Assembly: GCA_039679545.1 (NCBI GenBank)
Contig: JBDKUT010000014.1
Location: 1-10,856, forward strand
Direction of reading: 5' to 3'
Source of the DNA: Thermotogota bacterium
GTDB taxonomy: Bacteria; Bipolaricaulota; Bipolaricaulia; UBA7950; UBA9294
DNA length: 10,856 nucleotides
The notes beneath the pieces are model-generated. The model saw only the letters and a list, made by a program, of their open reading frames with translations, did not search any database and had not been told where the DNA came from. This document shows, piece by piece, positions 2,385 to 10,831 of the stretch (its first letter is position 1; every line of letters starts with the position of its first letter). Both the position numbers and the translations under genes were made by a program.

Positions 2385-3713
2385 ATGCAGGTGCCAGTAT
2401 GGATTTCAAGATTCAGGCTCGGGAAGTCACTCGAGGACGTCGATCGAGTCCTCACGCTTCTTGTTCGCGACGCGGGAACCCGCGTGCCCTTCTACCGGGA
2501 CCTGTATACCCGAGCGGGGATCGACACTTCTTCCTTCCGCGGATCGGCGGATCTGACGACGCTGCCTCGCTCGACGAGGGATGCACTCCAGCAGCCCCCG
2601 GACCGGGATCACCTGCGCGAGGGGCGCAACCCTCGCCAATGCGCACGGACGAGCACGAGCGGTTCCACCGGCCAGCCGCTCACAATCTACCTCAGCCGGC
2701 CGGAGCTCTACTTCCGTCGCTTGAGTGTTCTGACGGGCCTCCGACGCTACGCTCCGCTTCGCTTCCCGTTGCGTATTGCCGACGTGGGTTCCATGGTTCC
2801 CCACAGCGCCAAGAGCGTCGAGCAGAGCCTGGGGGTCGTCCGCATCCTTCGCATCCCCGGAAATGCTCCGCTTGCGGAGCAGTGCACGGCGCTACTGCGC
2901 TATCAGCCGACTCTCCTCGAGGGGTATCCGACGTGCCTAGGCCTTCTGGCTGAGAGCCTCTCGGAGAGCGAGTCGAAGCTCGTCCGCCCCGCGCTTGTTG
3001 CGTGCCGTAGCGAGCGGCTGCGCGAAGACACCCGCGAGATCCTCACTCGGACGTTCCGTGCCCCCGTGGCAAATCTGTACAGCTGCGAAGAAGTCGGGAA
3101 CCTCGCCTGGGAGTGCCCCGACCACAGCGGCCGCTTCCACCTGAACCGGGACACGTGCGTGCTCGAGGTCGTGGATGGCGCCGGGAGTCCCACCGCGGAG
3201 GATGGGAACGTCGTCGTGACCAACCTCTACAACCGCACCATGCCGTTCCTTCGGTATCACCTCAACGATCGAGGACGCCTAGTCGGCGACGAGGACAGTG
3301 TCTGCTCTTGCGGGGCGGCCGGAGCTTCGCTTGAGGGATTGACCGGCAGCGAGGACGACTTCATCTCGTTTCCCGATGGCCGCCTCCTCGCGCCTTTCGT
3401 CCTTCCGAACGCCCTCTTCAACGCTCTCCGCGCTCCCGATGACCCGCATCAGCTGAGCCCCTCGGTCCATCGCTACCAGATCATCCAGGAGGAAGACTAC
3501 TCCCTCCGCGTGATTCTTGACTGGCGAGGAACCATCGACGACGCCCTGTGGCGGCAGATCACATCCGAGGTGAATCAGGCGTGCGAGGGCCTCGCCTGCA
3601 CGGTGGAGAGGACGGCGGCGTTCGAGCTAACGCCGGCGGGCAAGTTCAAGGAGGTTCTGTCTCGGGTGCCCGGCGCCGCCAGCCTGAGGCGCCCTCCTAC
3701 CAGCGCAGCGTGA
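2385..3713 (+). CDS. Phenylacetate-CoA ligase family (PaaK/CapK-like) adenylate-forming enzyme
   Basis: 442 aa; GGAGGTG RBS; N-terminal VPFYRDLY...DLTTLP, P-loop TSGSTGQP (~2655), GYPT, YSCEEVG, VTNLYNRTMPFLRY, CSCG, and the C-terminal TPAGKFK lysine (3642-3644). Confidence 0.9.
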   Translation: MQVPVWISRFRLGKSLEDVDRVLTLLVRDAGTRVPFYRDLYTRAGIDTSSFRGSADLTTLPRSTRDALQQPPDRDHLREGRNPRQCARTSTSGSTGQPLTIYLSRPELYFRRLSVLTGLRRYAPLRFPLRIADVGSMVPHSAKSVEQSLGVVRILRIPGNAPLAEQCTALLRYQPTLLEGYPTCLGLLAESLSESESKLVRPALVACRSERLREDTREILTRTFRAPVANLYSCEEVGNLAWECPDHSGRFHLNRDTCVLEVVDGAGSPTAEDGNVVVTNLYNRTMPFLRYHLNDRGRLVGDEDSVCSCGAAGASLEGLTGSEDDFISFPDGRLLAPFVLPNALFNALRAPDDPHQLSPSVHRYQIIQEEDYSLRVILDWRGTIDDALWRQITSEVNQACEGLACTVERTAAFELTPAGKFKEVLSRVPGAASLRRPPTSAA

Positions 3714-5637: not shown

Positions 5638-8600
5638 TCAGTAGTCGCGCTCGCTCCCCATGATCATCAGTCCGAGCGCCGTGGCTTGTCCGGCCCGCCT
5701 GAGAACGCCGGCCTCGACGGCCGACGACGGGTCATCGGGAGAAGTGGCTTCGCGCCATCGCTCGCAGGAAAGCGTTGCCTCCGGCGTCCTTTCCCCCGCC
5801 TCCGCGGCCGTCTTGCCGGACAGCGCCGAGCGCAGATCGATGGCGGTCTCCGAAACCACCATCCGCGCCCCTGTCCGCGACGCGGCCGACCGAAAGAGGT
5901 TCGACAGGCGCATCCCGCCCGACGTCTCCACGGCAAGGCGCGACGTGGCACCATGCCCGAGCGCTCGCAGTCGCACAACGGCCTCAACCGTGTAACGACC
6001 GGACGGGAAGGTCGACTTCTTCAGGAACTCCTCGGCGCTCGGTTCGCCACGGAACTCCCCGCCGTTCCACCCCACCCCGCTGTAGGCGACGAGCAAGAAA
6101 CTGCGGTTCGGGGCATACTCGGATTCCGTGAGGAGGCGGGCGATCTCGAGAAGGACCGCCACGCCACTCGCGTTGTCGTTCGCGCCCTCGCTCTTTGCCG
6201 ACCCCGGCCGGGCCGGCCAGGTGTCGTACTGGGCGAGCACGGCGATGACTTGGTTGTCGAGCTGGTCGCCCTGCGCGCCGCGTGTTCCGGGAACCCAGCC
6301 GATGACGTGGCGCACCGGAGTGTCCCTTCGCAGCTCTCCTTGAGCACGAAGCGAGGCTCGTCGCGGAAGCACGAACGTCAGCGGGTTCCGTGCGTCCACC
6401 TCCGGAACCTCTGCCCGCAACTCGGCCACGGTCCGACCCGAGCCGGCGAGGATCCGATCGGCCGTCGCTTCGGAGATCCAGAACGTGACTCGGTCAATCG
6501 GCGTCGATGCGGTTGTACCGCCCGCCAATGCCCAGTCGGCGCGGCTTTCTGGTGAGAGCACGGATCGTTCCTTCAGAGCAGCCTCTTCATCCGCGACCAC
6601 GAGCATCCCCGCACACGGCCTCCCCGCTAGGAGTTCCGCGTCCGCCGCAGATAGGACGAGGAGGACTTCGTGCGAGAGATCGACCCGTTTGAACCGGCTG
6701 ACGTCGATCTCGCCGTACGTGGGCCGCTCTCCGAACGAGACGAAGCGAATCTCGCCTTTCGCGTCCCCGGCACATCGGAAGCGATTCGCGTACTCCGCGA
6801 AGTCGACCCCATAGCGCAACACAGGTCCCTCGTCGTCGAGCGTGAGGACCGGCGCCTCCGTCAGCTTTTCGAACCCGCCCGTGCTCGAGACGAAGTATCC
6901 GCCGTCCTCGCCGATCGCCTGAAGCGATAGGCGCCCAAACTCCGCCGCGATGTAGTCGGCCGCCGCCTCGGCGCCTGTGGAGCCGAGCTCCCGCCCGCCG
7001 AGCCCCGCCGTCAACGCGGCGACATGCGCTACGGCCCGCTCGCCGTCGAACAGGGTTGCGTCCCGTCGATAGATACCCGCCGGCCCCAGGCTCCCCGAAA
7101 TGGAGTAGAAGAGCACTCCGACCGCCACGGCGCCGGTGAACGTGTAGCGGTTGAACACGCGCCGCAACGAGAAACTCCCCCGCTCGATCTCGCGCCGGAT
7201 TCCCTCGCCCAGGAGGTAGAAGCCGAACGAAGAGACAAAGATCGCGAGCGAGGGATAGATGCCGAGCCACGGGTGAGCTCTGGCCGACTGACGGAACGTC
7301 GCCAAGAGGGCGCCCCACTCGGGGACGTCGGAGTAGTGAAGCGGTGGAGAAAACATCTCCATCTCCGCATACGCACCCCCGCCGAGGAAGATCCCGAGGA
7401 ACCCCAACTCGCCGAGCGCCACGAGAACAGCCGAGAACTCCACCGCGAGGAGCGCCACGAGGGACGGCGCCATGTGCGGAAGCAGGTGCGCGGCCACCAG
7501 GCGCGGTGTTCTCATTCCCACGGCCCGAGCGCTTTCCACAAAGGGCCGCGACTTCAGGCCGATCATCTCCGCGCGCACAAAGAGCGCGAGCTCTCCCCAG
7601 CCGATCACGCACAGGCCAATCGCGAAGGGCAGGACTCCTTGCCGAATGCCGACCGCAAGGATGACAAGCATCGCGAGGAGAAGCGCCGGGAAGGGCGTGA
7701 TGACTTGAGCCAGTCCGACAATCGTTCGGTCCAGAACCGACCCGCGCCGCCAGCCGGCGATCGCGCCGAGAAGCACTCCCATTGCCATTCGGGCCGCGAC
7801 GGCCACGGCGGCCAAGAGCAGAGTCTGCTGCGCGCCCGCCAGCACGAGGCTCAAGAGGTCGCGTCCGAGGGCGTCGGTGCCCCACGGGAACTTCGCGCTG
7901 GGCGCGAACGGGGGACCCATGTAGGTTCCGCCGACCTTCTCGAGGCCACGGGTGAGGTACGGATTGTGCGGCGCCAAGTCCGCTCCGAAGAAGACCACAA
8001 CGAGGACACCGACACACAGCAACCCGCCGACAAGAAGCGGGAGGTTGACGCGGATGCGCGCGCGGCGGAGGCTCCGGGTCCGTTCCGCTTGAGGAACACG
8101 AACATGGGGCACCCTGGCCCGTCGCTTCGCGGCTCGAACCAGGTACGCCAGCCATTCGCGGGGAAGCCGGACAAGCGACCGCACACCATCGACGAGGGCG
8201 GAGATCGCGTCGCGCAGCGACGCCCTCGGCTCCTCGAGTTCGAGCGCCGCCTTGCCAAGGCGTGGGTCGAGGAGCGGATACGAGAGCTCAAGGAGCATCT
8301 GGACCGCCAGAAAGACGAGGGCCAGTGAGAGCAAGAGCGCGACGGTCAGGTTGTCGTCCTGGTTCGAGATGGCCCGCAAGAGCGTGTACCCGGCGCCCGA
8401 CCAGCCGAAGTAGACCTCGACAACCGGCAGGCTCGCCAAGGCGAAGCGAAGCGAGACGGCGGCCGTCGTCAGGATCGGCATCACGGCGTTCCGGGCCACG
8501 TGCCGAGACAAGACTTTGCGGAACGGGACCCCTTTTCCATGAGCGGTTCGCACGTAGTCCTGCTCCAGGATCTCTCGGACCTTGATGAACGTGATCCGCG

Positions 8601-9177
8601 CGATCTGGGAGACCGGCCTTGCTGCAAGAACGAGGGCCGGCAGAACCAGCTCTCCGCCCCAACCGAACCCCCCGACCGGCAGGACACTGTGGCCGACGGC
8701 GTGCGTAGCCTTGAGAACGACGATCTGAAGAAGGAGAGCGACGAAAAAGCTGGGGGCCGACGCTCCAAGGATCGAGCAGAAGAGAAGGAGCGACGAGGCC
8801 AGCCGGCGCCGAGACACCGCCGCCGCGGTTCCGAGGAGGACGCCGGCCAACGTCGCAAGACCGAGCGTCACGCCCAGGAGACCGAGGCTCCGCGGCAGCG
8901 TCACGGCCACGACCTGCGCCACGGGAAGTCGACGCGATGTCGGGCCGCCCACGGACGTCATTCCCAAGTCCCCGTGCGCGAGGCGAACGACGTACGCGGA
9001 GAATTCCTGGCTTGCGTGACGCAGCGCGTCGCCTGCGGGGGCTCCGCGAGCCAGGTCGAGGGCGAACAGAGTGAACAAGGCCGTCGCGAGGCCCACGACG
9101 ACCACGAGCAAGATCCGCTCGCCCGCTCGAAGGGCTATCCTGCCGAGCCCCGTCCCGCTGTCGCAACTCAGCCGCAC
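5638..9177 (-). CDS. Fused peptide/nickel-family ABC permease (DppB-like + DppC-like) with C-terminal PA domain and degenerate M28 peptidase domain (~1179 aa)
   Basis: GTG at 9177 with GGAGG 7 nt upstream. DppB half: GDLGMTS, PSFF, LVLPALVL, EAA loop QDYVRTAHGKG, VEVYFGWSGAG, ending LLDPRL (~8257). DppC half: PWGTDALGRDLLS, EAA loop RPFVESARAVG, PEWGALL, LLGEGIR (~7200). Then a TM helix and M28 motifs FDGERA, GRELGSTG, AADYIAAEF, GANDNASGVAVLLEIARLL. Confidence 0.92.
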   Translation of the reverse strand: MRLSCDSGTGLGRIALRAGERILLVVVVGLATALFTLFALDLARGAPAGDALRHASQEFSAYVVRLAHGDLGMTSVGGPTSRRLPVAQVVAVTLPRSLGLLGVTLGLATLAGVLLGTAAAVSRRRLASSLLLFCSILGASAPSFFVALLLQIVVLKATHAVGHSVLPVGGFGWGGELVLPALVLAARPVSQIARITFIKVREILEQDYVRTAHGKGVPFRKVLSRHVARNAVMPILTTAAVSLRFALASLPVVEVYFGWSGAGYTLLRAISNQDDNLTVALLLSLALVFLAVQMLLELSYPLLDPRLGKAALELEEPRASLRDAISALVDGVRSLVRLPREWLAYLVRAAKRRARVPHVRVPQAERTRSLRRARIRVNLPLLVGGLLCVGVLVVVFFGADLAPHNPYLTRGLEKVGGTYMGPPFAPSAKFPWGTDALGRDLLSLVLAGAQQTLLLAAVAVAARMAMGVLLGAIAGWRRGSVLDRTIVGLAQVITPFPALLLAMLVILAVGIRQGVLPFAIGLCVIGWGELALFVRAEMIGLKSRPFVESARAVGMRTPRLVAAHLLPHMAPSLVALLAVEFSAVLVALGELGFLGIFLGGGAYAEMEMFSPPLHYSDVPEWGALLATFRQSARAHPWLGIYPSLAIFVSSFGFYLLGEGIRREIERGSFSLRRVFNRYTFTGAVAVGVLFYSISGSLGPAGIYRRDATLFDGERAVAHVAALTAGLGGRELGSTGAEAAADYIAAEFGRLSLQAIGEDGGYFVSSTGGFEKLTEAPVLTLDDEGPVLRYGVDFAEYANRFRCAGDAKGEIRFVSFGERPTYGEIDVSRFKRVDLSHEVLLVLSAADAELLAGRPCAGMLVVADEEAALKERSVLSPESRADWALAGGTTASTPIDRVTFWISEATADRILAGSGRTVAELRAEVPEVDARNPLTFVLPRRASLRAQGELRRDTPVRHVIGWVPGTRGAQGDQLDNQVIAVLAQYDTWPARPGSAKSEGANDNASGVAVLLEIARLLTESEYAPNRSFLLVAYSGVGWNGGEFRGEPSAEEFLKKSTFPSGRYTVEAVVRLRALGHGATSRLAVETSGGMRLSNLFRSAASRTGARMVVSETAIDLRSALSGKTAAEAGERTPEATLSCERWREATSPDDPSSAVEAGVLRRAGQATALGLMIMGSERDY

Positions 9178-9344
9178 CGGACGCCCTCCCTCCAGCGTCG
9201 CTCCGCAACCGCCAGTATAGCGGAACAGGCTCCTGCCCTGAGCCCGCCAACTTCTTGCTGGCGCTCGCTCCCCAGTCGGCTCTCGAGTCCCCGGGGGTGC
9301 ATCGCCCGCCGGGTCTCCCGTGCCCGCCGTGTGAGGGTTCCCCG

Positions 9345-9858
9345 GCGAACCACGGCTCAAGAAGCACGCTCACCGAGCGCCGCTCCTCGATGGTGGCGAC
9401 GGTGCCGGCCATGAATCCGCGGTACGTAAGCTCTGCGAGGCTCAGCCGCCGCTCCTCGAGAACCTTCGCGAACTCGGCCTCGACATCGGCGAGCATCTCG
9501 TCCAGTTCGCCGAGCGGGAATCACCAGTACACGTCGTGATGGTGAATGAACTCGCGACCAAATCGATCGGCGCGCTCCCTCGTGCGCCCCTCGGGGCAGT
9601 GTCCGTAGCAGACAAGGGCAATGGGGAATGCGCACGGCGGAAGACCAAACAGGGCTCGGTGCTCCTTCGCATGCCCCAAGACGTCGCCGACGTACCACGA
9701 GCCGATCCCCATCGACTCGACGGCAATGGCCGAGGTTTGCGCCGCGGCGAGCGCATCGCGCTCGCGATGATCCGGTCGACGTCTTCTCGGTCGATGGGTC
9801 GATCGGCGTACTCCCGAAGCGACGTTCGCTCATCGATCAGCCTTAGTGTCTCGTTCAT
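9345..9858 (-). pseudogene. Nitroreductase (NfsA/Frp-like) pseudogene
   Basis: AAGGAGG RBS and ATG 9858. Reads MNETLRLIDERTSLREYADRPI...SAMR, switches frame at 9759-9751 into DALAAAQTSAIAVESMGIGSWYVGD...LFGLP...YGH, hits an in-frame TGA at 9523-9521, then continues FPLGELDEM...ERRSVSVLLEPW. The 3' end is approximate. Confidence 0.85.
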
Positions 9859-10060: not shown

Positions 10061-10831
10061 ATGCAGAAGACGAACCCCGTCCTTGACTGCCTGATGAACC
10101 ACCGGTCGATCCGAAAGTTCAAACCCGACCCGGTCCCCGAGGAGACTCTCAACACGATCCTCGGCGCCGGGATCCGCGCCGCGACGGCAGGCTGTATGCA
10201 GGCGTACGCGTTCATCGTTCTCGACGATCCTCAGGTGCTGAAGAAGGTCAGCTACATCCCGGCGCCGCTCGCCGTCGTCGCCGTCGTCGACCAGTACCGC
10301 GTGAAACGGTACTACGAGCTTAACGACGCCCCCTTCTACAACGATCAGGCCGTCAACCTTCTCATCTCGTACTGGGACGCGACGATCGCGCTGCACAACG
10401 TCGTCGTCGCCGCAGAGAGCACGGGGCTCGGCGGCGTCTACATCGGCATGATCCTGTCTCAGGACCTGCGCGAGTCGCTCGGCGTGCCCGACTACGTCAT
10501 CCCGGCCGGCCTCGTCGCGCTCGGGTACCCCGACGAGGCGCCCGACCTGGCTCCCCGCCTACCGCTCGAGGCCGTCGTCCATCGGAACGGATACCACATC
10601 CCGTCCGACGATGACATCCGCGAGTGGTACCGCGTGCACGACGAGCCTTGGAAGAAGCGCTTCGACACGAAGTGGTCGGAAGAGCGGCGGAAGAAGTCGA
10701 TCGAGCAGGGCGTGACGAACCGCGCTCAGCAGTGGACCGTCGGCCACTACACACCCGACTTCATCCACGAGGAGTCGCAGGCGCTACTCCGCAATCTCCG
10801 CACCGCCGGGTTCCGACTCGAAGAGGACTAG
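10061..10831 (+). CDS. NfsA/Frp-family FMN-dependent nitroreductase (256 aa)
   Basis: AAGGAG RBS at 10051-10056; NHRSIRKF FMN-binding motif, DATIA..NVVVAAESTGLGGVYIG, LGVPDYV..LGYPDE, PRLPLEAVVHRNGY, and the long C-terminal extension typical of the NfsA group. Confidence 0.92.
   Translation: MQKTNPVLDCLMNHRSIRKFKPDPVPEETLNTILGAGIRAATAGCMQAYAFIVLDDPQVLKKVSYIPAPLAVVAVVDQYRVKRYYELNDAPFYNDQAVNLLISYWDATIALHNVVVAAESTGLGGVYIGMILSQDLRESLGVPDYVIPAGLVALGYPDEAPDLAPRLPLEAVVHRNGYHIPSDDDIREWYRVHDEPWKKRFDTKWSEERRKKSIEQGVTNRAQQWTVGHYTPDFIHEESQALLRNLRTAGFRLEED

Follow-up and report, generated by a model that had tools for sequence, protein, structure and literature searches.

What does a peptidase-fold domain do when it is built into the same chain as a Dpp/Opp-type permease, at a locus that holds no gene for a binding protein? 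In this study, we addressed this question with a gene from a Thermotogota bacterium placed in the Bipolaricaulota by GTDB (assembly GCA_039679545.1, 2.35 Mb in 163 contigs). The window, that is, the whole stretch of 10,856 nucleotides analyzed, is the entire contig C14 (JBDKUT010000014.1). The gene occupies 5638..9177, with all of its features on the minus strand, and encodes DppB, a linker, DppC, an extra transmembrane (TM) helix and a PA/M28 pseudo-peptidase ectodomain in a single product, as delineated by the open reading frame (ORF), Pfam, NCBIfam and a structural model. Our analyses suggested, at a probability of roughly 0.5, that the dead PA/M28 ectodomain is a tethered substrate receptor that replaces DppA, ATP hydrolysis being supplied by DppD/F encoded elsewhere. 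We favor this reading because the ectodomain appears dead yet conserved, the docking loop has been lost, a hairpin in DppC is new, the EAA loops are intact and a binding-protein gene is missing.

The product comprises 1179 amino acids, read without interruption from a GTG start at 9177 to a stop at 5638, and is identical to a database entry (P0002). Pfam detected BPD_transp_1 twice (E 5e-45) and Peptidase_M28 at residues 973-1104 (E 2e-11, over the cut-off). In NCBIfam, OppB/DppB models matched the first third of the protein and OppC/DppC models its second third, every equivalog score being under the cut-off. An initial annotation of the locus had placed both permease halves in one ORF, and this was borne out. 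A protein search returned 493 matches among 8000 candidates scored, and the B, C and M28 parts were all present in the best 120 of these 493 homologues (the window's own included), as judged with profiles built from the same 120 homologues and concordant with precomputed Pfam for 119. These 120 come from Bipolaricaulota and Chloroflexota, the closest named relatives of the window being Candidatus Bipolaricaulis and Bipolaricaulota. In runs X1 and X2, single contigs read across the B-C junction; across the C-M28 junction, contigs came from X5 as well as from these two runs. The comparison, made on contigs only, listed no indel within the gene; X1 and X2 belong to one study that may be the source sample. 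Since contigs bridge both junctions and the 120 best homologues share the architecture, the fusion is no artefact, and the three-part fusion is confirmed as a real, conserved gene.

The ectodomain (residues 699-1179; 5641..7083) was delimited by Pfam, the model and Foldseek, whose top match was the transferrin receptor ectodomain (E 1.4e-13), followed by PA-containing M28 aminopeptidases; nicalin was a weak sequence match (E 0.005). The M28 domain with a PA-like insert proposed in the initial annotation stood only in part at the level of Pfam, which called M28 and did not call PA in the window protein. The insert is instead supported by the model, as an alpha/beta insert at about residues 775-945 (~6855-6343), by Foldseek, and by PA hits in relatives (P0346 over the cut-off; L082, L084 and P0361 weak). 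When aligned to free relatives that hold every site residue, the metal site (5731..6231) proved degenerate. Specifically, in the window protein the first His is replaced by Q983, the Glu-Glu pair by V1035-G1036 and the next Asp by R1071, and a final His is missing near 1145; with D1001 alone retained, one of five zinc ligands and no catalytic Glu are left. Of the reference positions, D117/E151/E152 were counted from the alignment, the others being H97, D179 and H256. Among the domains long enough to be counted (237 in all, with one full fusion and two C-M28 proteins dropped), all five ligands or the Glu-Glu pair were kept in none of 119 B-C-M28 proteins and none of 118 C-M28 proteins, against complete sites in four of four free relatives. 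The 119 full fusions kept no ligand in 13 cases, one in 96 and two in 10; the first His was replaced by Gln in 113 and the Asp by Arg in 113. One Glu is retained in 103 of the 119, where the window protein has Val; whether the relatives keep the first or the second Glu of the pair varies with the alignment. The last-His column is poorly aligned. Judged by these residues, the M28 domain of the window protein is a catalytically dead pseudo-peptidase. The ratio of nonsynonymous to synonymous substitution rates (dN/dS) against four relatives was 0.17-0.28 for the M28 core and 0.11-0.29 for the PA part, and 54 of 234 columns of the core were at least 90% conserved. These values indicate that the dead domain is under purifying selection and is not decaying. 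A search at 50% identity found all six site residues in three of 85 permease-linked representatives (P0247, P0254 and P0324, each DppC-M28), and P0243 joins DppC to a dead and an intact M28 domain in tandem. By sequence, then, permease-linked members with an intact site exist and are rare.

The outer face of the permease differs from that of ordinary family members in both halves. First, the DppB/OppB-like half (six helices, residues 10-303; 8269..9150), supported by Pfam, NCBIfam, the model and Foldseek (E. coli DppBCDF chain 8z1w_B, target TM-score 0.78), has a first outer loop (8977..9048) of 28 residues from which most of the alpha1-loop-alpha2 scoop is gone. In E. coli, the scoop (DppB residues 32-62) fills the DppA cleft and its deletion brings ATPase activity down to about a quarter (PMC12136057). 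In ordinary DppB from this genome and related loci, the corresponding span was never shorter than 45 residues (45-71, 25 of 25), whereas all 17 M28-linked DppB, whether fused or encoded separately, had 28-36 residues. Of the 120 full fusions, 114 had 28 residues here (two are without the region); of 40 distant representatives, 39 had no more than 34 and the remaining one had 44. The window DppB, with a loop ~19 residues shorter, thus lacks the full-length scoop of Dpp/Opp permeases. Second, the DppC/OppC-like half (six helices, residues 379-666; 7180..8043; Pfam, NCBIfam and model) carries a family-specific insertion of 14-17 residues in its outer TM5-TM6 loop (7330..7383), recognized in the model and by length comparison: the loop has 25-28 residues in 120 of 120 fusions vs 11 in 19 of 19 ordinary DppC. 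The insertion is modelled as a beta-hairpin at low confidence, and the pair 603-614 was the top covarying pair, which suggests that it forms a hairpin. In a tree of 34 sequences, M28-linked DppC made up one side of a long branch with support of 100/100. Taken at the sequence level, the binding-protein docking surface is rebuilt, with the scoop mostly lost and a putative DppC hairpin gained. Neither this change nor the loss of catalytic residues had been noted in the initial annotation.

The side that couples to the ATPase appears unchanged. The EAA loop of the B half (8521..8568) contains K215, invariant in 120 of 120 fusions and aligned with E. coli DppB K243, which salt-bridges DppD (PMC12136057). 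The EAA loop of the C half (7501..7545) keeps E548 in 114, A550 in 119 and G554 in 110 of 120 sequences. With both loops and the DppD-contacting Lys conserved, the cytoplasmic side is, as far as these residues tell, that of an ordinary permease. Between the halves lies a basic cytoplasmic linker (8044..8268; contig-bridged), with a mean of 18 Lys/Arg (K/R) and little conservation (4 of 78 columns at least 90% conserved). A 13th TM helix (residues 677-694; 7096..7149), present in the model, is predicted to carry the C-terminus outside; it is only moderately hydrophobic, hydropathy reaching 1.2 or more in 115 of 120 proteins and 1.5 or more in 71. The coordinates of the EAA loops, linker and extra helix agreed with those first annotated. 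The AlphaFold2 model (114 sequences, mean pLDDT 81, pTM 0.63) orders six B helices, six C helices, helix 13 and then the alpha/beta ectodomain. E. coli DppB and DppC likewise have six helices each and cytoplasmic EAA loops (PMC12136057). Because the 13th helix is odd-numbered and K/R residues average 4.8 before it vs 1.3 after it across the family, the ectodomain is predicted to face outward, in line with the outward placement first proposed. Covariation analysis gave no usable signal for the position of the ectodomain relative to the channel. The initial annotation had listed indels or stops at the junctions, homologues always encoded as separate genes and a cytoplasmic M28 domain as grounds for doubt; none of the three was found, and the architecture it proposed to look for elsewhere recurs in the best 120 homologues, with many relatives encoding DppB separately.

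The neighborhoods of the gene were examined at 114 family loci, of which the 41 with at least 3 kb on both sides were counted; several are near-duplicates, so that they are not independent. A family-5 binding protein, searched with a profile built from the 15 hits in this genome, was absent within 5 kb from 33 of the 41 loci and present in eight, and a binding-protein gene not assigned to an ordinary B/C pair occurred at three. No family-5 binding-protein gene was found on the window's 10.9-kb contig. This genome also holds 15 ordinary dppB-dppC pairs, 14 of them no more than 4.3 kb from a family-5 binding-protein gene (13 when a gene between two pairs on contig C72 is counted once); the one pair without such a gene nearby starts 142 bp from a contig end. 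For the ATPases, by contrast, the genome yielded only three DppD/F pairs, none of them at the fusion. Sharing of ATPases is therefore usual in this genome, and a permease pair here can be expected to lack its own ATPase gene but not its own binding protein. DppD/F were present in five of five other fusion-bearing genomes checked and lay in seven of the 41 loci; in L175 and L183 they directly adjoin the fusion. When 127 flanking ORFs were scanned with Pfam (123 of 145 listed plus four tagged as ATPases; 22 that were repeats, already scanned or too long were omitted), no recurring partner emerged; one PstS-like binding protein turned up, encoded two genes from the fusion on the opposite strand.

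In the receptor reading, the substrate, a peptide or amino-acid derivative, would bind beneath the PA lid, in what was once the active-site cleft, where the kept Asp1001, plus one Glu in most relatives, could hold an amine and the family-wide Arg1071 a carboxylate. The ectodomain would dock on the outer gate, the DppC hairpin might take over the docking or release role of the scoop, and borrowed DppD/F would drive uptake, the direction being import. As for its history, an intact PA/M28 aminopeptidase may first have been tethered to DppC, catalysis would then have been lost via different substitutions in different branches, and DppB might have been fused on in some lineages; the DppC tree did not resolve the placement of the intact-site members. 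More tentatively, and at a little under even odds in our judgment, these proteins may form a class of importers in which a dead PA/M28 aminopeptidase replaces the binding protein, the outer gate is rebuilt and intact-enzyme intermediates are still living.

Several points weigh against the receptor role. The Val of the window copy, where 103 of 119 relatives keep Glu, weakens the amine clamp for this copy, and no single ligand chemistry is conserved, since pocket residues differ between subfamilies. The degenerate ATPase domain of three representatives does not suggest simple coupling to DppD/F, and at L175 and L183 the adjoining DppD-like genes are both split. In addition, binding proteins can be shared in trans, and this genome has 15 family-5 hits. 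One lies within 5 kb at the eight loci mentioned, and the gene often trails a full dppDFABC operon. Finally, removal of the scoop lowers the activity of E. coli DppABCDF but does not abolish it (PMC12136057).

These last points, together with the unassigned binding protein at three of 41 loci and the position of the gene 3' of the operon in related loci, speak for a permease that uses a DppA-type protein in trans, the dead M28 domain then serving as an accessory pre-concentrator, gate or scaffold. We regard this as unlikely: the scoop is short in 39 of 40 distant representatives, the new DppC hairpin lies where DppA would sit, and the ordinary pairs of this genome keep a private binding protein.

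FtsEX/MacB-type systems control an envelope partner through ATP-driven movement. By analogy, an ATP-driven permease could move the ectodomain to control such a partner, or an outside ligand could signal through it to a cytoplasmic partner. Relatives with an N-terminal degenerate ABC (ATP-binding cassette) ATPase (three of 146 representatives), TPR, receiver or ABC-2 membrane domain would fit such a switch or sensor, as would the split-type genes that adjoin large proteins with full-site M28 domains (L084, L178), the same DppC clade with an unrelated outer domain (P0381, P0387), and the absence of DppD/F from 34 of 41 loci. The fold, however, is that of a type I importer with conserved EAA loops and DppD-contacting Lys, the added domains are found in a minority, and the window gene has no conserved partner gene, which makes this role rather improbable.

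That the ectodomain trims peptides and feeds them to the channel via an unusual site is very improbable for the window protein, which keeps only Asp1001 and neither Glu, in a family where 113 of 119 full fusions have Arg in place of a metal ligand; cut-and-import may hold where the site is intact (P0247, P0254 and P0324, three of 85) or where a second, intact M28 domain is present (P0243). A fusion made by assembly, or a gene in decay, might be suspected because the contig is just 10.9 kb long in an assembly of 163 contigs and because a nitroreductase remnant with a disrupted frame lies directly upstream; both can be set aside in view of the bridged junctions, the full set of parts in 120 of 120 top homologues and a dN/dS of at most 0.29 for each folded domain.

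Compared with DppBCDF/OppBCDF (E. coli 8z1v-8z1z and 8z21; M. tuberculosis 8j5q and 8wd9), the window protein has in common the two six-helix halves, the EAA loops and the DppD-contacting Lys. It differs in that B and C form one chain, followed by a 13th helix and a 480-residue ectodomain, in the ~19-residue shortening of the scoop and the 14-17-residue outer insertion in C, and in a locus without its own binding-protein or ATPase gene. A receptor covalently linked to the membrane domain is also described for OpuA and GlnPQ (PMC11065425, PMC8025302 and PMC8144104). Their tethered domains are classical substrate-binding proteins, whereas here a PA/M28 fold is joined to a Dpp/Opp-class permease; a classical substrate-binding-protein fold was neither a Pfam hit nor among the listed Foldseek hits for the window protein. 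With the PA-containing M28 aminopeptidases (Aneurinibacillus AM-1 2ek8, B. subtilis BSAP 6hc6, P. aeruginosa PaAP 8acr) and the Vibrio/Aeromonas aminopeptidase 1amp, the ectodomain shares the fold and the region of the GAxD motif; unlike these M28 enzymes, it is without four of five metal ligands and the catalytic Glu and is tethered to a permease. The transferrin receptor and nicalin are catalytically inactive. They and nicastrin likewise reuse the M28/PA fold for binding, but they are eukaryotic, single-pass and outside ABC transporters, at an identity of about 15%. For nicastrin, a peptidase-derived Glu333 pocket has been proposed to bind substrate (PMC2647162). Because the closest sequence relatives of the ectodomain are intact bacterial M28 proteins, its site was most likely lost independently of these three eukaryotic cases.

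Type I ABC importers are generally taken to depend on a classical binding protein, whether this is free or tethered. If the receptor reading is true, capture by a peptidase fold would add a new type of receptor and a new release mechanism to these importers, and would be a bacterial counterpart of the conversion from peptidase to receptor in the transferrin receptor and nicastrin. The family would also provide, on a common permease, a natural gradation between intact enzyme and dead binder. Some relatives are annotated as 'M28 family peptidase', although the site was complete in none of the 237 domains examined; with such labels on site-less domains, the number of proteases in Anaerolineae and Bipolaricaulota genomes may be overestimated. 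A literature search aimed at the DppB-DppC-M28 architecture found no paper describing it, most subscription papers lying outside its coverage.

Besides the full fusions, a second subfamily consists of a separate DppB and an 820-amino-acid DppC-M28 protein (119 of 120 listed). The fusion occurred in seven of 61 genomes of the window's relatives (eight matches, one of them a free intact M28 protein). With a Chloroflexota copy as query, matches were obtained in three of 301 genomes sampled across the phylum, in 18 of 151 genomes of one order and in seven of 17 of another, the latter including the unpublished G520. A contig scan contributed five family loci among 60 returned, the others being weak M28 matches that were left out. 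The patchiness in the window's relatives and the nesting in the tree suggest transfer from Anaerolineae into Bipolaricaulota.

Relatives with further domains were also observed. P0245, P0253 and P0256 (1443-1530 amino acids) combine a degenerate ABC ATPase, DppB, DppC and dead M28 in one chain, the ATPase domain being LolD/MacB-like by our reading of its motifs. L189:9080-13510, L205:5347-9864, P0057 and P0080 carry an ABC-2 membrane, receiver or TPR domain in-frame, N-terminal of the fusion. Proteins of 1500-2100 amino acids with two M28 domains, some with DUF418 (L082:1-5547, L084:1-4485, L178:6253-9228 and the P0343-P0378 group), have a complete first M28 domain in 18 of 20 cases and a complete last one in none of 20, and some adjoin C-M28 genes. 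P0381 and P0387 share the outer DppC insertion and the extra helix and bear an unrelated outer domain with no Pfam match, the repeats of which we presume to be PepSY-like; this pair suggests that ectodomains are swappable. The full fusion gene occurs in tandem pairs in L004, L149, L187 and L205, and G519 has five matches.

In some loci, the fusion lies 3' of a complete dppDFABC operon plus a further gene, here gene X, which encodes ~590 amino acids with a lipoprotein-like start, a soluble middle and C-terminal helices. No Pfam family was over the cut-off in the six copies scanned, and its Atlas clusters are unnamed. Gene X adjoins the fusion in 24 loci, including L144:6071-7843 and L189:7048-8964. 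We considered it as the missing receptor and rejected it: it was not found in this genome or in three of five other fusion-bearing genomes, and in the other two it lies away from the fusion, with two of three copies beside dppD/F. It is tied to the dppDFABC operon rather than to the fusion and is a possible accessory subunit.

A Shine-Dalgarno-like purine run (9184..9193) ahead of the GTG is kept in four of four close relatives, and a TATACT -10-like box (9214..9219), ~37 nt 5' of the start codon, is identical in the four of four aligned. The consensus promoter scan did not call this box at 9219-9214; its conservation suggests that the fusion gene has its own promoter. Since the box and purine run are conserved and the downstream gene has its own promoter-like site, the fusion gene is probably transcribed alone. 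The downstream genes, 5522-4959 and 5004-3697 on the minus strand, with a near-consensus promoter at 5558-5531 ahead, have no Pfam or NCBIfam match and are syntenic in L001 and L002. The alternating beta-strand-like sequence of the 5004-3697 product reads to us as possibly an outer-membrane protein. On the other side of the fusion, the nitroreductase remnant (9858-9290, minus strand) is spread across frames with an internal stop and points away from an intact NfsA-like nitroreductase at 10061-10831. The close relative L002 does not have it in this form (alignment gap 9222-9745), and one run shows a 69-base skip at 9377-9447 within it. Further genes of the window are a PaaK/F390-synthetase-like AMP ligase (2385-3713, plus strand; under all cut-offs) and an exported protein of 451 amino acids (2102-747, minus strand) with an immunoglobulin-like stretch at its C-terminus.

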